The notes beneath the pieces were generated by a model. The model was not told where the DNA came from. It saw only the letters and a program-made list of their open reading frames with translations, and made no database searches. Position numbers and translations under genes: made by a program. Below, piece by piece: positions 15,790-40,878 of a stretch of 64,000 nucleotides of DNA (the first letter of the stretch is position 1; the number at the start of each line of letters is the position of its first letter). The stretch lies in the NCBI RefSeq assembly GCF_057098645.1, contig NZ_CM169472.1. One strand, given 5' to 3'.

Positions 15790-16905
15790 ATGTTCCCAAA
15801 AATAATGAATGATGAAAACTTTTTCAAAAAAGCGGCGGCGCACGGGGAGGAACCTCCTTTAACTCCTCAAAACGAACATCAGCGGTCCGGGCTGCGCTTC
15901 GCCCGTCGCGTCAGACTACCCCGTGCGGTTGGCCTGGCTGGCATGTTCTTACCGATTGCTTCAACGCTGGTTTCACACCCGCCGCCGGGCTGGTGGTGGC
16001 TGGTGTTGGTCGGCTGGGCGTTCGTCTGGCCGCATTTAGCCTGGCAGATAGCGAGCAGGGCCGTCGATCCGCTTAGCCGGGAAATTTACAACTTAAAAAC
16101 CGATGCAGTATTAGCGGGAATGTGGGTAGGCGTAATGGGCGTAAACGTGCTGCCTTCCACCGCGATGTTGATGATTATGTGTCTGAATTTGATGGGGGCA
16201 GGCGGCTCCCGTCTGTTTGTCGCGGGTCTGGTGTTGATGGTGGTTTCCTGCCTTGTCACCCTCGAGCTGACGGGCATTACCGTGTCGTTCAATAGCGCGC
16301 CGCTGGAATGGTGGCTCTCCCTTCCCATTATTGTCATTTATCCTCTGCTGTTTGGCTGGGTCAGCTACCAGACGGCAACCAAACTGGCGGAACATAAACG
16401 CAGGTTGCAGGTCATGAGTACCCGCGACGGCATGACGGGCGTGTATAACCGACGTCATTGGGAAACTATGTTACGCAATGAATTTGATAACTGTCGGCGG
16501 CATAATCGCGATGCAACGTTACTGATTATCGATATCGACCATTTCAAGAGCATCAACGATACCTGGGGCCATGATGTGGGCGATGAAGCGATTGTGGCGC
16601 TTACCCGACAGTTACAAATTACCCTGCGCGGTAGCGATGTGATTGGTCGGTTTGGCGGCGATGAGTTTGCGGTAATCATGTCCGGTACGCCAGCTGAGAG
16701 CGCCATTACCGCCATGTTACGGGTGCATGAAGGGCTAAACACGTTACGCTTGCCGAATACGCCACAGGTAACTTTACGGATTAGTGTGGGGGTTGCACCG
16801 CTGAACCCACAAATGAGTCACTATCGTGAGTGGTTGAAATCGGCAGATTTGGCGCTTTACAAAGCAAAGAAAGCCGGACGTAACCGCACCGAAGTGGCGG
16901 CCTGA
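15790..16905 (+). CDS. dgcC: Diguanylate cyclase DgcC (AdrA/YaiC), membrane MASE2 + GGDEF
   Basis: 371 aa; N-terminal membrane domain; C-terminal GGDEF domain with RFGGDEF motif visible. Confidence 0.9.
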   Translation: MFPKIMNDENFFKKAAAHGEEPPLTPQNEHQRSGLRFARRVRLPRAVGLAGMFLPIASTLVSHPPPGWWWLVLVGWAFVWPHLAWQIASRAVDPLSREIYNLKTDAVLAGMWVGVMGVNVLPSTAMLMIMCLNLMGAGGSRLFVAGLVLMVVSCLVTLELTGITVSFNSAPLEWWLSLPIIVIYPLLFGWVSYQTATKLAEHKRRLQVMSTRDGMTGVYNRRHWETMLRNEFDNCRRHNRDATLLIIDIDHFKSINDTWGHDVGDEAIVALTRQLQITLRGSDVIGRFGGDEFAVIMSGTPAESAITAMLRVHEGLNTLRLPNTPQVTLRISVGVAPLNPQMSHYREWLKSADLALYKAKKAGRNRTEVAA

Positions 16906-20691: not shown

Positions 20692-22971
20692 ATGAATAGA
20701 ATTAATATATTGGTCATCTGTATGGTCGTATTTTTTATGACTGGCAATGCATGTGCCACAGAGTGGATCAGTAGCGAGGACCTTATCACCTCTGACTTTC
20801 ATCTTATGACGGCAGATGAGCGCAACGTGGTTAAAGCGGCAACCGACGATAGTATGGAAGCTGCTTATATGCTAAAAGATAATATCCGCTGGTATTATCA
20901 TAATGGTGACCTATCATTACCCGCTAACTTCAGCAATCAAAATAAACTGGTGGTGAACGGTAATTTAACGATTTCCGGCGATTATGATGATTATCTGTCA
21001 GGTAATGGTCATCTGATTGTATTAGGTAATGTTATTGTCGATAACTTTATTAATCATGATTTCGCGTATGTCAAAGGACAGATGACAGCGAAAGGTTTAG
21101 TTTATGCTGATTACAATGATCATAACTTTGAAGTGATGAAGGGAATTAGTGCGCGAGGCATTATTGTTTCCGATAAAGCAACGCAATTTGAAGTCATTAA
21201 AGCTGAATTTTATATCAATGAAGATGGAAGTGGTGAAGGATATAACTGGGATGAGAATATTCAAAAAGCCTATTCACTGGTGACTGCCGATCTTTATGAT
21301 CACACTGAAATCGAAACCGATAACATTTCCAATGCGTATCCTGACTATGATAGCGTCGCAGACAACATCGTTCAGGGTTTACCGCTTTTTCGAGATAAAG
21401 CCGCTCCTGAAATTAATGAGAAATTAAAATGGATTGAAACGGGGAAACTCGATAATTTCCCAGCGAATAAAATAAAGCATCAAGATCCACTGGTGGTACG
21501 TTTTTTGACTCATACAGAGAGTTTATCACCCGCCGTTATGCTGCAACTGTTACAGCACCCCGATGACCAGACGCGTGAATCGATGGCGCAGTCCTGGCCC
21601 GCTCAACAGATGCATTTGCTTACCGATGAATTAATTAAAGATGAGGCTGTTGCCAGAGGGCTGGTTAAAAACAGTAATATTTCCGCCGATGTGAATAAAA
21701 AATTAATGTCTGTACCCGTCGAGAGCGTACAGCTGGAGCAGGCCAGACAGGATAATCTTTCTCCAGATATTGTTGCGTCGTTAAGTCATAGCCCCTTTCT
21801 CAGTGTACGCAAGACATTACTCAGCCATTACGATTACGCCTGGCTGGTTCCGACTGCAGTGGCCGATGAGTTGATAAATAACGAAGACCCGGAGTTACGT
21901 GAAAGAATTACCGGAGCAGATTTAACCGCACAACAAGCAGTGATGTTGAGTAAAGATAAATCACTGAAAGTTCGTGAAGCATTAGCCCGGACGCTTACTG
22001 AATTAAAAATTACCCAACTGTCAGCAACCCTGCGTACAGAGGATATTGAACGTATCGCAGAACAAATGTATCTGGATAATAAAGAAAATAAAAATATCGT
22101 AAAAGCGTTATTGATAGCGTTGCCGGAGATGCGTCAACTGTCTCTGGCAAAAGAAGATGTGCACAATTTGCGCGAAGGTGCGCGTTATCTGACATCGAAG
22201 GACGTGATTAGTTATCTATTGACTCAGCATGATGTTCCCACCGTCTGGGATGAGCTGGCACGCGATAAATTATTGCCGCTGGAATATAAGAAACAGTTAT
22301 GGCAACGCACATTAAATTTAATGATGAGCAAACGGCAAGAAGATCAAGAGCAAGCCTACGAAGTACAGCTGGCGCTGATTGATAATGGTGTTGTTGACGA
22401 AGAGATGTTAAATAATGCCATTGATTTACTGGTTGATTTACCCGCTGAATACCGCTATCGAATGCGTAACCAATTATTTGATAATAAAGATTTACCTTCC
22501 GGAATTATCAACAAACTCGATCAACAGTATCGCTTCAACTCTGACTGGGCGCTGGCTGTTGTCAGTATGAAAAATAGCACCCGTAGGCAAAGTGAAAGAG
22601 GATTACACCGCTGGAACCATGAGGATAGCGATATTTTTGCGGAACTGGCGACGATAAAAGATAAATCAGATGATGAATGGTGGCGTGCATTGCTGCAAAG
22701 TCGCAATGATCATTTGCGCCAAACGGCATTACGCAACGCACATACCCCGGCGTCGTTGTTAACGACATTGACTGAGTCTCAGGATCGGTCGCTGGCTATT
22801 AATAATCCACAGCTGGCTGCCGATGTGAAAACGGTGTGGCTAAAAGAGGATCCATCATTGCTTTTATTTGTCGATCAACCCGATCTTTCGCAGTTACGGG
22901 ATTTAGTGAAAACCGGGGCAACGCGGAAAATTCGCAGTGAAGCGCGTCACCGGCTTGAGGAAAAACAATGA
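20692..22971 (+). CDS. Accessory secreted repeat protein (759 aa): Sec signal peptide, beta-rich N-domain, HEAT/LRV-like helical repeats
   Basis: ATG at 20692 gives MNRINILVICMVVFFMTGNACA|TEW (AxA cleavage site). N-terminal third has glycine-punctuated beta-strand-like repeats (LVVNGNLTISGDY, HLIVLGNVIVDNF, GLVYADY, GIIVSDK). C-terminal two-thirds has helical repeats (SPDIVASLSHSPFLSVRKTLL, EDPELRERITGADLTAQQAV). AT-rich codon usage by eye. Confidence 0.7.
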   Translation: MNRINILVICMVVFFMTGNACATEWISSEDLITSDFHLMTADERNVVKAATDDSMEAAYMLKDNIRWYYHNGDLSLPANFSNQNKLVVNGNLTISGDYDDYLSGNGHLIVLGNVIVDNFINHDFAYVKGQMTAKGLVYADYNDHNFEVMKGISARGIIVSDKATQFEVIKAEFYINEDGSGEGYNWDENIQKAYSLVTADLYDHTEIETDNISNAYPDYDSVADNIVQGLPLFRDKAAPEINEKLKWIETGKLDNFPANKIKHQDPLVVRFLTHTESLSPAVMLQLLQHPDDQTRESMAQSWPAQQMHLLTDELIKDEAVARGLVKNSNISADVNKKLMSVPVESVQLEQARQDNLSPDIVASLSHSPFLSVRKTLLSHYDYAWLVPTAVADELINNEDPELRERITGADLTAQQAVMLSKDKSLKVREALARTLTELKITQLSATLRTEDIERIAEQMYLDNKENKNIVKALLIALPEMRQLSLAKEDVHNLREGARYLTSKDVISYLLTQHDVPTVWDELARDKLLPLEYKKQLWQRTLNLMMSKRQEDQEQAYEVQLALIDNGVVDEEMLNNAIDLLVDLPAEYRYRMRNQLFDNKDLPSGIINKLDQQYRFNSDWALAVVSMKNSTRRQSERGLHRWNHEDSDIFAELATIKDKSDDEWWRALLQSRNDHLRQTALRNAHTPASLLTTLTESQDRSLAINNPQLAADVKTVWLKEDPSLLLFVDQPDLSQLRDLVKTGATRKIRSEARHRLEEKQ

Positions 22972-23423
22972 CACAACGCCCCTGGAGCAAGTTACAGCGG
23001 GAGAACTATGACTTACTGACGCCAACGATCAACCTGCACATTCACTGTACCCGTTATCCCATGCGCAGCCAAAATGGTGGAAGCACCGATTTACCGCGTT
23101 ATTGGATCACGTTGGATAAAAACGTGATCTGGGATTACCCGAAAGACTTTATTGCAGGTAACGGTGGAGTGCGTAATTTTCACGGTGAAACTTGCTGGTA
23201 TCCTTACCTGACGGATATTTGTCCAATTTCTGATTTATTGCGTGAATATATTGACACCCCAAAAGCGGAGCTGTTAACAAAACAATTTACCAGCGATAAA
23301 TGGGGGTTAGTGAATATTCTGCGTGCTGCTGACAGGCGAATAGGGATGAGACGATTCGATCAGTTACGGCGTAAAACGCATAATATTGCTGCGCTAAAAA
23401 TTATTGCCCGCCGTAGCGAATAA
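22968..23423 (+). CDS. Hypothetical protein (151 aa) translationally coupled to the upstream gene; may correspond to the K-12 ykiA locus
   Basis: ATGA start/stop overlap with the upstream ORF; basic, Trp/Tyr-rich; no family recognised. Confidence 0.55.
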   Translation: MTQRPWSKLQRENYDLLTPTINLHIHCTRYPMRSQNGGSTDLPRYWITLDKNVIWDYPKDFIAGNGGVRNFHGETCWYPYLTDICPISDLLREYIDTPKAELLTKQFTSDKWGLVNILRAADRRIGMRRFDQLRRKTHNIAALKIIARRSE

Positions 23424-36647: not shown

Positions 36648-36805
36648 TCCTTGCGTTCTGTAAGCCGGTTCAGGAGGAAATCCTGATCCGGCTATTCCGA
36701 AAGTTATCCGCCCCCGTCCTCCTCCCCCAAATATCCTTCAGATGATGAGTGATCCTGCATTAGGCTATGGCAAGGTGATCAGATTTTCATCACAGGGGAA
36801 TTATG

Positions 36806-38620
36806 ATGTTAAATGCATGGCACCTGCCGGTGCCCCCATTTGTTAAACAAAGCAAAGATCAACTGCTCATTACACTGTGGCTGACGGGCGAAGACCCACC
36901 GCAGCGCATTATGCTGCGTACAGAACACGATAACGAAGAAATGTCAGTACCGATGCATAAGCAGCGCAGTCAGCCGCAGCCTGGTGTCACCGCATGGCGG
37001 GCGGCGATCGATCTCTCCAGCGGACAACCCCGGCGGCGTTATAGTTTCAAATTGCTTTGGCACGATCGCCAGCGTTGGTTTACACCGCAAGGCTTCAGCC
37101 GAATGCCGCCGGCACGACTGGAGCAGTTTGCCATCGATGTACCGGATATCGGTTCACAATGGGCTGCGGATCAGATTTTTTATCAGATCTTCCCTGATCG
37201 TTTCGCCCGTAGTCTTCCTCGTGAAGCTGAACAGGATCATGTCTATTACCATCACGCAGCCGGACAAGAGATCATATTGCGTGACTGGGATGAACCGGTC
37301 ACGGCGCAGGCGGGCGGATCAACGTTCTATGGCGGCGATCTGGACGGGATAAGCGAAAAACTGCCGTATCTGAAAAAACTTGGCGTGACGGCGTTGTATC
37401 TCAATCCGGTGTTTAAAGCTCCCAGCGTACATAAATACGATACCGAGGATTATCGCCATGTCGATCCGCAGTTTGGCGGTGATGGGGCGTTGCTGCGTTT
37501 GCGACACAATACGCAGCAGCTGGGAATGCGGCTGGTGCTGGACGGCGTGTTTAACCACAGTGGCGATTCCCATGCCTGGTTTGACAGGCACAATCGTGGC
37601 ACGGGGGGAGCTTGTCACAACCCCGAATCGCCCTGGCGCGACTGGTACTCGTTTAGTGATGATGGCACGGCGCTCGACTGGCTTGGCTATGCCAGCTTGC
37701 CGAAGCTGGATTATCAGTCGGAAAGTCTGGTGAATGAAATTTATCGCGGGGAAGACAGTATTGTCCGCCACTGGCTGAAAGCGCCGTGGAATATGGACGG
37801 CTGGCGGCTGGATGTGGTGCATATGCTGGGGGAAGCGGGTGGGGCGCGCAATAATTTGCAGCACGTAGCCGGGATCACCGAAGCGGCGAAAGAAACCCAG
37901 CCGGAAGCGTATATAGTTGGAGAGCATTTTGGCGATGCACGGCAATGGTTACAGGCCGATGTGGAAGATGCCGCCATGAACTATCGCGGCTTCACATTCC
38001 CGTTGTGGGGATTTCTTGCCAATACCGACATCTCTTACGATCCGCAGCAAATTGACGCCCAAACCTGTATGGCCTGGATGGATAATTACCGCGCAGGGCT
38101 TTCTCATCAACAGCAACTGCGTATGTTTAATCAGCTCGACAGCCACGATACTGCGCGATTTAAAACGCTACTCGGTCGGGAGGTTGCGCGCCTGCCCCTG
38201 GCAGTGGTCTGGCTGTTCACCTGGCCTGGTGTACCGTGCATTTATTACGGTGATGAAGTGGGACTGGATGGCAAAAATGATCCGTTTTGCCGTAAGCCGT
38301 TCCCCTGGCAGGTGGAAAAACAGGATATGGCGTTATTCGCGTTGTACCAGCGAATGATTGCGCTGCGTAAGAAAAGTCAGGCGCTGCGTCGTGGCGGCTG
38401 TCAGGTGCTGTATGCGGAAGATAACGTGGTGGTATTTGTCCGCGTGCTGAATCAGCAGCGTGTACTGGTGGCAATTAACCGTGGCGAAGCCTGTGAAGTG
38501 GTGCTACCCGCGTCACCGTTTCTTAATGTCGTGCAATGGCAACGCAAAGAAGGCCATGGGCAACTGACAGACGGGATTCTGGCTTTGCCTGCCATTTCGG
38601 CTACGGTGTGGATGAACTAA
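36806..38620 (+). CDS. malZ: Maltodextrin glucosidase
   Basis: 604 aa from [12 protein letters not shown]...; GH13 alpha-amylase family; ORF-track start at 36803 is an equally possible adjacent ATG. Confidence 0.92.
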
Positions 38621-38653
38621 AGCATCTGTTTTATTTGTTACGTCGTTAGTCAC

Positions 38654-38701
38654 CAGCCCTGACACTACGCAGCGCAAAAAAGCTGCTCAATGTCAGGGCT
38701 G
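38654..38701 (+). terminator. Long stem-loop downstream of malZ (putative terminator / islet boundary)
   Basis: cagccctgaca ... tgtcagggctg 11-bp perfect stem with a structured 26-nt loop, followed by AT-rich sequence. Confidence 0.45.
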
Positions 38702-38807
38702 AATTTGTTAAATATTTGTCCCGATCGATATGAGCGATTTTTGGTATTGTTTGCCCATGATGTTATGTACAACATGCTCCAGGATAACCCTGTAGTGGAG
38801 CAAAGAT

Positions 38808-39866
38808 ATGACAATTTCAAATTCGAATTTATTAAAACCGTTTATTACTGGTTCTAAGTTGCTACCTTTTAAGGATGATGTCTTTTCTAAAACAGAAGAA
38901 CAATTTAAAAAAGCCCCCATGGCAAATCGCTTTTCATTTCCGGAAATGAAAACTTAGTAAACATTTCAGCGGAAAAAATCGATGAAATAAAAAATAGCAA
39001 AAATTTCTTTTCAAACATTGTAAATATAATAATTTTACTCATTAAGCATCCTGATAAAATTCTGCCTATTCTTCATGGTTGTCCTGCAGAGCCCATCGAA
39101 TTCATTAAGAATGCGAAACGAACGGGGCAATGGTCATATGAGATGACTGATAAGTACGGGCAGAGTATTGAAGTGTCCTATATTTTCACTGATACCATAG
39201 ATAATAAATCTGATGGAAAATTATGCTTAAAAATCTGTAACTCCTGCAACCAAAATGATTCTAGTACACATGAATATAAAATAGATCATCAACAGTTGAA
39301 AAATCACATAAAGCAACTTGAGGAGTGGGCTCTTCTTGAAAAGTTTTATGATAACAACGCTTATTATTCTAAACGTACAAAACAATTAGAGAAGAAAATT
39401 ACCGATGCGGGGTTTATAACAGGGAAGGTTAATGCCGAGAAGTTTAATGTAAAAGAGTTTAAAGACGATATAACCTCGATGCTTTGTGAACAGCCGCCCC
39501 TGCGTACACACCAGATTTCTTCATCCGGATACGTATCTGCAGATAAACTGCCCAAACTCTATGAGTTAAATTTGAAAGACGCGCAGAGAGATCTTAAAAC
39601 AACACCGGTTGACATCGATGGTGTCAGTTTAAAATTTAAAACTCGGGAAAGAATTGCAGAAGAAATTGCGAAAAAAACTGCGGGAAAAACTGCGGAAAAA
39701 AATTCGGAAATAATTGCGAAACAAAATGCGAATAGCATTGAGGAGAAGAATATTGAAAAAAAACAAGAAAGAAACAAATCCTGAAGATAATTTTGTCTTA
39801 AAATTCTCACAGGAAGAAATCAATGAGATGCTCCTGGATTACAGCGACGAAGAACAAAAAAATTAA
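38808..39866 (+). pseudogene. Accessory gene interrupted by two frameshifts at homopolymer tracts (would encode about 350 aa)
   Basis: ATG at 38808 with GGAG SD starts MTISNSNLLKPFITGSKLLPF... (frame 0). Reading continues without stop in frame 2 after the A6-G-C5 tract at 38907-38918, through the ORF-track 213-aa segment (39143-39784). It returns to frame 0 after the A8 tract at 39754-39761 and ends at 39866 (...FSQEEINEMLLDYSDEEQKN). Confidence 0.6.
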
Positions 39867-39898
39867 GACCTTTTTTCACTAGTGATCACATCTATTGT

Positions 39899-40276
39899 TT
39901 GTTCGATGCTTTTAGTCAGTGTTTGCATAATGTTGCTCGTGATGGCAGTCCACGGTATGCAGGTTTACTACAACAAATAGCATCCAAGTGTGCGATATTA
40001 CAAGATTTTGATCAACAATTGTTCTGGCGCACGTTTACAGGAGGGGGCCTCCATCGACATATCTCTGTGAAGAGCGAGCCAGAAAAGACAGATGTATGGC
40101 GATTCAGTACACAATTTGATTTTCCACATATAAATGAAAACGGAGAGTTGTCCAGAACGGTACTCATGTTCGAGGGGGTTGCTGAAAGCAACTTTAAAGA
40201 TATCGCCAATCATTCCAGCGAATGTTTTTCTTACCGTTGTTATGCCGCCCCGCTGGATGCGAATGCTAAAAAGTAA
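39899..40276 (+). CDS. Hypothetical protein (about 125 aa), start uncertain (TTG in ORF track)
   Basis: ORF with no ATG near its 5' end; AT-rich; no family recognised; may be a gene remnant. Confidence 0.3.
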   Translation: MFDAFSQCLHNVARDGSPRYAGLLQQIASKCAILQDFDQQLFWRTFTGGGLHRHISVKSEPEKTDVWRFSTQFDFPHINENGELSRTVLMFEGVAESNFKDIANHSSECFSYRCYAAPLDANAKK

Positions 40277-40296
40277 TGACGCCGGAGTTTGAAGTT

Positions 40297-40878
40297 TCAG
40301 AGCGCCTTGCGTGACGCCTGCGCCATCATCCGCGGATAAAACTGCCAGAAGCGGGTTTCGAGGGCGGCATAATGTGCGTTTAAATCGTACCAGGAGTCAC
40401 GCAGGGCATCCAGACGTGGGCGACGGCTTGCCATGCCGTTTAACACGTTCTGGATGAAATCCATATCGCGATAGCGCACCAGCCACTGCTCTGACCACAA
40501 GTAATTGTTCAGATTGATAAAACGTGGCGGTGAGTCCGGCAAAATCGTCATCACTTGCTCGCGGGCATAACAGACAAATTCCTGTAGCGGAAAGTCCGGC
40601 GACAGCTGCGACCAGTGGCGGGAAAGAAAGTGATCCCACATGACATCCAGGGTAATAGGCGCAACGCGGCGCGTTTCACTACGAAACCATTCCCGTGCTT
40701 CGCGGACTTCCGGCAGATTGTCAGTCAATACGTCGATACGTCGATGCATATGAATGCCAGCCACGACGTCGGGCGGAAAACTTTCTTCAGGATTTCCGCG
40801 TACGAAATCAGCCAGCAAATTGCCGGAAAGCGAGCTTTCCGCGAGATGGGCTAAATGCAGGTGAGCTAAAAAATTCAT
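40297..40878 (-). CDS. acpH: Acyl carrier protein phosphodiesterase
   Basis: 193 aa, [25 protein letters not shown]... Confidence 0.92.

Follow-up and report, generated by a model that had tools for sequence, protein, structure and literature searches.

In the contingency genes of Haemophilus, Neisseria and Campylobacter, the reading frame changes when mononucleotide runs within the coding sequence slip. Non-LEE effectors, in turn, have a profile of orphan genes in AT-rich single-gene islets, with high dN/dS, repeated pseudogenisation and a charged linker whose repeats vary in length. Within this second group, EspY3 (OI-26, z0521/ECs0472) is a validated non-LEE type III (T3SS) effector that has a WEX5F N-domain like that of SopD, carries pentapeptide repeats and has been localised experimentally to actin pedestals (PMC6313403; PMC8565820), and most of the 1387 O-island genes in EHEC are uncharacterised (PMC8565820). 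The closest relative of the gene described here is ECs_0454 (NP_308481.1; WP_000155944.1), a hypothetical protein of O157:H7 Sakai, which is the same gene at the same malZ–acpH locus as in our window (the whole 64-kb stretch of DNA that was analysed). The locus is already known in RefSeq, both as this hypothetical protein and, in O145, as a pseudogene, where PGAP gives the ortholog the label 'frameshifted'; the PGAP-annotated ortholog in O145 RM12275-C1 is WP_112865097.1. Comparison of these alleles with the window leads us to a reading that we hold with high confidence: the locus is an old, chromosomally inherited, E. coli-only accessory gene of the ECs_0454 family, dead in the window strain through stepwise decay at poly-A tracts.

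The gene lies in a single-gene, AT-rich islet at window positions 38621–40296, bounded exactly by the stop codons of malZ (38620) and acpH (40297). GC content is 0.31–0.41 in the islet (measured over 38650–40150) compared with 0.51–0.58, around 53%, in the flanks, as an earlier note on this DNA had judged by eye. That note had also described malZ and acpH as nearly adjacent in K-12, and indeed the two convergent genes are 4 bp apart there, with a likewise 4-bp gap at this site in CFT073. Because of this spacing in K-12, all 1676 bp are accessory, and the opposite possibility raised in the note, a conserved segment shared with K-12, is contradicted by the absence of the region from that strain. 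Across complete E. coli genomes, the islet segment was present in 1127 of 5426, with one copy per carrier genome and always on the chromosome. No direct repeats were found at its junctions, and a tblastn search against phages revealed no copies of the islet gene. Apparent 'plasmid' matches in tblastn were mislabelled 4.9-Mb chromosomes and included no true plasmid copy. The islet therefore shows none of the marks of mobile-element cargo (mobile copies, flanking repeats or an integrase). A short way 3′ of the malZ stop, folding revealed a strong plus-strand hairpin (38654–38701) with an 11-bp outer and a 5-bp inner stem (MFE −31.4 kcal/mol; z = −5.1; 0 of 200 shuffles as stable), followed by a weak T-run. 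The hairpin is near-identical in five aligned alleles (one G>A, and one C>T in RM12581) and is found at one place per genome, with no second copy in any genome; an Rfam scan of the islet gave no match. It is probably a malZ terminator or 3′-end stabiliser contributed by the islet, the terminator role being putative.

The islet holds one gene, not two. Alignment to intact alleles revealed a plus-strand pseudogene of the ECs_0454-family orphan (38808–40276) that is broken into four frame segments. As the earlier note had it, the ORF begins with MTISNSNLLKPFITGSKLLPF, starting at 38808; it lies behind a GGAG ribosome-binding site (38797–38800) and a 7-nt spacer, with the ATG at 38808–38810 on the plus strand. 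The same start codon is used in the PGAP-annotated intact orthologs, and no sigma-70-like promoter was detected upstream of it at our scan thresholds. In-silico repair of three poly-A tracts yielded a 489-aa ORF, well beyond the roughly 350 aa first proposed, whose product differs from that of intact O145 RM12275-C1 at S96P and V414G only. The Lys/Glu-rich region expected from the first reading corresponds to residues 276–345 of the repaired product (19% E, 17% K). In the window itself, all four fragments are on the plus strand. The first (38808–38957) is 49 aa long, of which around 35 residues are native N-terminal sequence, and is the sole product possible from the intact start. The second is a 213-aa mechanical ORF from internal Met113 (39143–39784), and its native frame runs from 38913 to a premature stop past the second lesion (ending QERNKS). 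The third is a 50-aa mechanical ORF (39714–39866), with a native frame that extends from 39764 to the stop made by the third lesion; it was also found in other samples (as P0136). The fourth (39899–40276; native frame from 39863) is a C-terminal alpha/beta domain of 125 aa, collinear with residues ~365–489 of intact alleles. What had been taken for a separate second ORF of 125 aa that lacked a convincing start is this domain, severed by the third frameshift. Upstream of it, an imperfect 12-nt tandem array on the plus strand (39638–39732; TRF: period 12, 5–6 copies, 71–77% matches) encodes Lys/Glu/Ala-rich tetrapeptide repeats. The array is an in-frame VNTR that explains allele lengths of 466–493 aa in steps of 4 aa, and length variation always comes in multiples of 12 nt.

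Alleles with an open frame are common. Intact alleles are single ORFs of 481–493 aa, and intact orthologs occupy the same locus in O157:H7, TR026, strain 1428, E686, NMBU-W13E19, AR Bank #0349, strain 26a and O145 RM12275-C1. Of 30 carriers sampled evenly, 28 have an intact gene according to their span class, and for seven of these classes the annotation was compared as well. A second, flank-anchored spread sample, which was diluted by acpH-only matches to 16 informative rows, contained a net in-frame gene in 13 of these. All 12 sampled O157/O55 genomes carried the same in-frame length. The search for intact alleles across E. coli that the earlier note had proposed thus finds them in O157:H7 and many other lineages, in line with its description of an accessory islet carrying a decayed gene. 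At the DNA level, the window copy is around 95% identical to the allele of O157 and 99.8% identical to O145-type alleles, including that of RM12275-C1. It has three frameshifts and two nonsynonymous SNPs, its repeat array is 24 nt longer than in O157, and it belongs, as a pseudogene, to a known ortholog group.

The three frameshifts all lie in poly-A tracts on the plus strand; the first reading was right to place the damage in homopolymers and counted two lesions. Lesion 1, at codon ~35, is an A6 run (38907–38912) that is A7 in intact alleles (−1). At codon ~317, lesion 2 is an A8 run (39756–39763) in place of A7 (+1), and at codon ~350, lesion 3 is an A7 run (39856–39862) in place of A8 (−1). 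Lesion 2 is the oldest: it is common to 24 allele-identical genomes (span 1678), mostly labelled O145 or O145:H28, and was confirmed at the sequence level in RM9872 and RM12581. Because the A7-to-A8 change is common to the whole lineage, it came first; lesions 1 and 3 are private to the window's sublineage. The O145 strain RM12275-C1 has A7 at the second tract and an intact ORF, with an islet that is otherwise identical, so that the gene is ON in 1 and OFF in 24 of the 25 genomes that carry an O145-type allele. Over the 64 kb, the window is nearly identical to genomes labelled O145:H28, with 18 SNPs and 2 indels against O145 RM9872. Both indels fall in the islet gene, as do 2 of the 18 SNPs, both nonsynonymous; the gene thus accounts for 2.3% of the length but 4 of all 20 differences (Poisson P = 0.0013). 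In other strains the gene has been hit independently, at A7, A6, C6, T6 and G5 runs, by deletions, and by IS1 insertions at a minimum of two sites. These scattered lesions, IS1 included, fit decay and not a programmed switch.

The family is a taxonomically restricted orphan, confined to E. coli. Searches of the intact protein against Pfam, NCBIfam, PADLOC, PHROGs and, by sequence as well as by profile, PDB gave nothing at E < 0.01. HMMER, run exhaustively against 1.84 billion representatives, returned one full-length cluster and its own fragments only. The single outside match (P0140; E = 8e-4) was a repetitive Ser/Asn-rich protein and was rejected as compositional. A degenerate-pattern scan with an invariant 12-aa peptide gave 0 matches in 100,044 species-representative genomes, and in a word-indexed search, all 120 listed of 379 matches were Escherichia sequences with at least 88% identity. 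AlphaFold2 models had a pLDDT of 37.5 at full length and 47.1 for the C-terminal domain, both unusable and too poor for a fold search. The literature that we searched makes no mention of ECs0454 or of the candidate tags z0502–z0504 in an E. coli context, and the island is absent from a 2021 review of virulence-related O-islands and its supplement. The intact product is a predicted soluble protein of ~55 kDa without a recognisable domain. Selection on the gene is weak, yet the ORF is kept open: dN/dS is 0.49–1.09 compared with 0.02–0.07 in flanking malZ, at a dS of the same order, and the frame remains open across alleles that are 24–72 substitutions apart, for which the probability of no nonsense change under neutrality is 3–14% per allele pair. 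The values near 1, in two allele pairs, would also fit neutral evolution of the gene in some lineages.

Several other explanations have to be weighed against decay of a real gene. The two private changes each remove one base from an A7/A8 run, as base-calling errors classically do, and could in principle be artefacts in a strain that really has the single-frameshift O145 allele; if two random errors struck among the ~14 runs of at least 7 bases in the window, both would hit the gene with P ~0.11. Against this, no other homopolymer across the 64 kb differs from RM9872, and lesion 1 recurs in four independent assemblies (L014, L015, L017 and L018). Over 5150 bp, with all three lesions included, the window is matched at 100% identity by an independent contig derived from SRA data, a second independent contig is identical across the whole islet, and two NCBI assemblies carry all three lesions. 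The exact 49-aa truncated product, moreover, is indexed in 53 blocks of the collection and occurs on 24 or more contigs that come from independent samples. Lesions 1 and 3 are real, given the 100% identity of independent assemblies, and an artefact is effectively refuted; we regard it as the least probable of all the explanations. It is hardly more plausible that the islet is a non-coding AT-rich spacer in which a long ORF arises by chance in some strains. The lack of a known domain, a usable structure prediction or a detected promoter, and a dN/dS of up to ~1, would suit such a spacer. By contrast, the 481-codon frame at 37% GC contains 0 internal stops where shuffled sequences contain a mean of 35.5 and a minimum of 18, it is open across diverged alleles and in around 90% of sampled carriers, a canonical GGAG ribosome-binding site precedes the ATG, and length changes keep to the 12-nt step. 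A third explanation treats the poly-A tracts as evolved on/off switches, operated by slipped-strand mispairing, with the window in the OFF state. The 5′ coding region does contain a hypermutable simple-sequence tract, an A7 run that has become A6 in the window; its position so close to the 5′ end (codon ~35) is typical of switches, and an A7 and an A8 tract lie downstream. All indels within the O145-type allele group fall in poly-A tracts, and the first and second tracts have changed independently elsewhere (+1 in the strain of P0134; −2 in another allele type, P0128). The A7 of RM12275-C1 could be a reversion, which would lend some colour to reversible switching. Yet the window has three non-compensating frameshifts and no single-step reversible switch: the three tracts are out of frame together, and restoring the ORF would take three simultaneous events. 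The triple lesion is fixed in those 24 or more contigs from independent samples and the A8 in 24 complete genomes, and the O157/O55 genomes show one in-frame length. Inactivation elsewhere, through C6, G5, T6 and A6 runs, IS1 and deletions, involves no dedicated tract. The tracts are merely 7–8 nt, which is short for contingency loci in mismatch-repair-proficient species. The suggestion that the gene might be phase-variable is therefore weakly supported at best, and we consider it improbable.

The first reading had also seen an effector-like gene, and the intact protein could be imagined as a LEE or ETT2 substrate, part of a non-LEE repertoire like espY3, that has since decayed. Several properties agree with this idea. 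Ser, Thr, Asn, Pro and Gln make up 0.38–0.42 of the N-terminal 25 aa, among the highest values of 60 window proteins; no signal peptide or transmembrane segment is seen by eye; and the gene is an orphan in an AT-rich single-gene islet, with high dN/dS, recurrent pseudogenisation and a length-variable charged repeat linker. Its distribution resembles that of validated espY3 (1127 and 934 of 5426 genomes), both exceeding escN (696). On the other side, the protein has no similarity, by sequence or profile, to any effector family, domain or PDB structure. The N-terminal polar score is tied, or nearly so, by the ordinary cytoplasmic proteins ppnP, yaiY and yaiA, and is lower in the real effector EspY3 (0.33), so that as a sequence criterion N-terminal composition appears not to be discriminating. 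The absence of acidic residues from the first 20 aa, to which the earlier note had pointed, is true of the window allele, but in most alleles position 17 is acidic (E17). At least 431 carriers are without LEE escN, the islet is absent from LEE-positive O111 strains, no chaperone gene is adjacent, and neither the literature searched (for ECs0454 or candidate z0502–z0504) nor the 2021 O-island review names the gene. Co-occurrence with the LEE cannot decide the matter, because espY3, a real effector, also occurs without the LEE and, as a control, is equally LEE-independent. There is no positive support for a T3SS effector, and we think this origin unlikely. In a broader version, the intact protein would be secreted or would act on the host, perhaps as a T3SS substrate of novel fold, the poly-A tracts would offer lineages a cheap and occasionally reversible way of shedding it when it is costly, and RM12275-C1 would be a revertant; this, too, we judge doubtful. 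With regard to the strain as a whole, O145:H28 is an EHEC serotype, and the proposal of a T3SS effector repertoire is right, on the strength of the likeness to genomes labelled O145:H28 and of espY3, which is intact in the window (the islet that the note had called C) 13 kb from the islet gene; the malZ–acpH islet adds nothing to it. Nothing links the gene to type III secretion, and it is therefore best seen as an ordinary decaying accessory gene.

For stepwise decay, we propose the following course. The gene is chromosomally inherited in a subset of E. coli, and replication slippage, as the presumed mechanism, introduced a one-base change in each of the three poly-A tracts. The first step was A7 to A8 at codon ~317; later, in the window's sublineage, when the gene was already broken, A7 to A6 at codon ~35 and A8 to A7 at codon ~350 followed. 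At present, translation from the intact ribosome-binding site and ATG ends after 49 codons. Such a history amounts to progressive pseudogene decay, probably under relaxed selection, with no programmed switch. In the ~90% of sampled carriers that keep the frame open, we infer that the intact protein is useful. Our best guess is a rapidly evolving factor that interacts with the niche or the host; that it is a T3SS substrate is a minority option. The result has little weight for biology at large, and nothing makes the ECs_0454 family a priority, a family that roughly one in five complete E. coli genomes carries and that is kept open in, among others, all sampled O157:H7. Compared with the first reading, the gain is one gene instead of two, three lesions instead of two, and no evidence of type III secretion. 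The locus shows neatly how a pseudogene has decayed step by step at its homopolymers, and its lesions could mark sublineages among strains with the O145-type allele.

Set beside the known systems, the islet gene shares some traits with each. Like the contingency genes of Haemophilus, Neisseria and Campylobacter, it undergoes frame changes in mononucleotide runs, one of them near the 5′ end. Unlike those genes, which have one long tract, it has several tracts of 6–8 nt; its OFF state is fixed across a lineage, it has several lesions that do not compensate for one another, and the damage in other lineages is unrelated. EspY3 and the islet gene each make up a single-gene islet inserted among the core genes of this 64-kb stretch, and both also occur in LEE-negative genomes. 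They differ in that EspY3 has recognisable domains and an experimental record and is intact in the window, where the islet gene is broken. The islet gene also resembles the ORFan/O-island genes of EHEC, which are likewise absent from K-12, AT-rich, without homologs outside the species and under weak purifying selection. From these it shows no difference in kind, and it is a typical example of them.

The strongly AT-rich block that the earlier note described between malZ and acpH is real: in 300-nt windows, GC content was 0.31-0.41 across 38621-40296 (Islet B) against 0.51-0.58 on both sides. The islet starts one base past the stop codon of malZ (36803-38620, + strand), and its last base lies just before the stop of acpH (40297-40878, - strand). 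The near-adjacency of these genes in K-12, as given in the earlier note, was correct. They are convergent and 4 bp apart in MG1655, and the gap in CFT073 is likewise 4 bp, so the entire 1676 bp of the islet is accessory. No direct repeats were found at the islet junctions. Directly after the malZ stop, a strong two-tier hairpin (38654-38701, + strand; -31.4 kcal/mol, z = -5.1) is nearly invariant among aligned alleles; because it is part of the islet, it is absent from K-12, and it is probably the malZ terminator in islet-bearing strains. Megablast placed the islet segment in 1127 of 5426 complete E. coli genomes, always chromosomal and in single copy, and no phage copies or true plasmid copies of its gene were found. 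Two PLSDB records (NZ_CP134663.1 and NZ_CP141089.1) are 4.9-Mb E. coli chromosomes recorded as plasmids, which yield spurious 'plasmid' matches for chromosomal genes.

Further accessory loci were observed in the same region. According to the annotation of O145 strain RM9872, a near-identical relative of the window, a 962-aa autotransporter gene lies at ~3617-6505 (+ strand) between hemB and iprA (CFT073 has it too), and a two-gene islet in the ppnP-rdgC interval (~20692-23423, + strand) encodes a 759-aa DUF2773 protein and an SF0329-family protein. CFT073 retains only a truncated remnant of the latter islet, which holds 2 of the 18 single-nucleotide polymorphisms (SNPs) that separate the window from RM9872 (21497 and 22860). 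O157:H7 Sakai has an additional two-gene islet in the secF-yajD interval (16258-16774 of Sakai sequence L010, corresponding to window ~46.4-46.6 kb), encoding a transcriptional regulator (ECs_0461) and a 'plasmid stabilization system protein' (ECs_0462); RM9872 is without it.

Alignment of the window to four alleles plus O145 genomes revealed that the homopolymer frameshifts suspected in the islet gene are present and number three, not two. Each is a 1-bp indel in a poly-A tract: lesion 1 (38907-38912; A6 versus intact A7, -1, codon ~35), lesion 2 (39756-39763; A8 versus A7, +1, codon ~317) and lesion 3 (39856-39862; A7 versus A8, -1, codon ~350). The reading frame consequently runs 0, 2, 0, 2 along the gene, giving four mechanical ORFs of 49, 213, 50 and 125 aa. 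In-silico repair of the three tracts produced a 489-aa ORF that differs from the intact protein of O145 RM12275-C1 only by S96P and V414G; the 125-aa 'second ORF' without a convincing start is therefore no second gene, but the C-terminus of the same one. Intact alleles exist elsewhere: PGAP annotates a single ORF of 481-489 aa spanning the islet in O157:H7 (ECs_0454 / NP_308481.1 in Sakai) and many further strains, and labels the ortholog 'frameshifted' in O145 RM9872 and RM12581. Allele lengths range from 466 to 493 aa in 4-aa steps because of an imperfect 12-nt tandem array (39638-39732) that encodes Lys/Glu/Ala-rich tetrapeptides. A GGAG motif lies 7 nt before the ATG, and a promoter scan found no sigma-70-like promoter upstream of it.

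Several observations bear on the status of the intact gene. The O157 allele (37% GC) has 0 internal stops in its coding frame versus 19-56 in the other frames, and shuffles of it had a mean of 35.5 stops (minimum 18). Allele pairs are 24-72 substitutions apart and each random substitution would have a 3.5-4.9% chance of being nonsense, so under neutrality the frame would stay open in only 3-14% of cases for each divergent pair. Of 30 evenly sampled carriers, 28 fell into intact span classes (7 of 9 classes were checked against annotation), the remaining two being the O145 frameshift and a large deletion; a second sample gave a net in-frame result for 13 of 16. Selective constraint is nevertheless weak, with dN/dS of 0.49-1.09 versus 0.02-0.07 in malZ for the same strain pairs. 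Synonymous divergence is of the same order of magnitude as in malZ (dS 0.03-0.08 versus 0.07-0.15), which speaks for a gene long resident here and vertically inherited, rather than one repeatedly transferred in recent times. The allele of NZ_CP033605.1 ('O157:H7 strain TR01') is 98.6% identical to that of the window, whereas the usual O157 allele is ~95% identical, suggesting recombination at malZ-acpH or an atypical O157 background.

The protein is an orphan. Sequence or profile searches of Pfam, NCBIfam, PADLOC, PHROGs and PDB gave no match at E < 0.01, and an exhaustive search of 1.84 billion representatives returned one full-length cluster and its own fragments; a single outside match was rejected as compositional. 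The best 120 of 379 matches in a word-indexed search were all from Escherichia, with at least 88% identity, and the invariant peptide MFEGVAESNFKD is encoded in no species-representative genome. AlphaFold2 models were poor (pLDDT 37.5 at full length, 47.1 for the C-terminal domain). We found no mention of ECs0454 in the literature searched, and a 2021 review of virulence-related O-islands left out the island that contains it.

Comparison of the whole 64-kb window with RM9872 revealed 18 SNPs and 2 indels. The orphan gene makes up 2.3% of that length and accounts for 4 of the 20 differences, namely both indels and 2 of the SNPs (Poisson P = 0.0013). Lesion 2 is common to 24 allele-identical genomes, most of which bear the label O145 or O145:H28 (grouped by equal 1678-bp span and score, two confirmed by sequence), and is therefore the older one, at the level of the lineage. 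Those genomes lack lesions 1 and 3. We rejected sequencing error as their origin because they recur in independent contigs and two NCBI assemblies: the assemblies have the complete set of three lesions, the 49-aa truncated product is called in exactly this form on 24 contigs or more (53 index blocks), one contig derived independently from SRA data matches the window with 100% identity across 5150 bp, and a further contig is identical across the entire islet. By contrast, a contig from a related strain (L016; ENA ERZ1714338 contig_1580) is truly error-prone, with 34 gap openings over 5 kb, listed differences that are mostly single-base homopolymer deletions, and malZ, acpH and queA broken into fragments. 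A metagenome contig (L019; ENA ERZ27263663 k141_66803, 1-580) matches window 39693-39903 exactly, including A8 at tract 2 and A7 at tract 3. From 39904 to 40235 it shows 21 mismatches, and it represents either a recombinant allele or a chimeric assembly.

The earlier note had left decay and phase variation side by side. Three frameshifts relative to intact orthologs bear out decay; the tracts are unlikely to form a dedicated switch, because the lesions do not compensate one another and are fixed together across many isolates, which precludes one-step reversal. The sole observation favouring switching is RM12275-C1 (L008, NZ_CP031341.1, 488-1957), the only intact ORF among 25 genomes with the O145-type allele: its islet is otherwise the same as that of RM9872, and A7 at tract 2 could be a reversion, a retained ancestral state or a difference in assembly. 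All 12 O157/O55 genomes sampled have a single in-frame length. Truncated products of other strains carry independent lesions at scattered sites, not in one tract: +1 in tract 1 (P0134), -2 in tract 2 (P0128), an A6 run at codon ~62 (P0127), a C6 run at ~230 (P0122), a T6 run at ~348 (P0131), a G5 run at ~449 (P0123) and IS1 insertions at two positions, where read-through adds the tail GDAANLLI (P0121 and P0125). More IS1 insertions and deletions occur in complete genomes. Such scatter is typical of a gene that is repeatedly inactivated in the ordinary way, homopolymers being its mutational hotspots, and in the window three slippage events in poly-A tracts would have killed it step by step. The first observation was largely right; the locus holds a lineage-restricted orphan gene, already annotated and dead in this strain, and is of little wider consequence.

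[quoted passage not shown] The N-terminus is indeed polar (residues 2-25 have a polar fraction of 0.38-0.42, heading the window's 60 annotated proteins), but the acid-free first 20 aa are allele-specific, and the score is tied by ppnP, yaiY and yaiA and exceeds that of a real effector, EspY3 (0.33), leaving the 'effector-like' label unsupported. The strain does carry a T3SS effector repertoire, which the earlier note suggested from Islets B and C together, but Islet C and not Islet B attests to it: Islet C is presumably the espY3 locus, which is intact (53242-54804, - strand, pgpA-yajO interval) and encodes a 520-aa pentapeptide-repeat protein (z0521/ECs0472). The LEE ATPase gene escN is present in 696 genomes, so at least 431 of the 1127 islet carriers are without LEE, and LEE-positive O111 strains are without the islet. 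We did not count this independence against effector status, because espY3, a validated non-LEE T3SS effector gene (PMC6313403) located in OI-26 (PMC8565820), is equally LEE-independent: it occurs in 934 of 5426 genomes, more than escN, and is kept by many LEE-negative strains.
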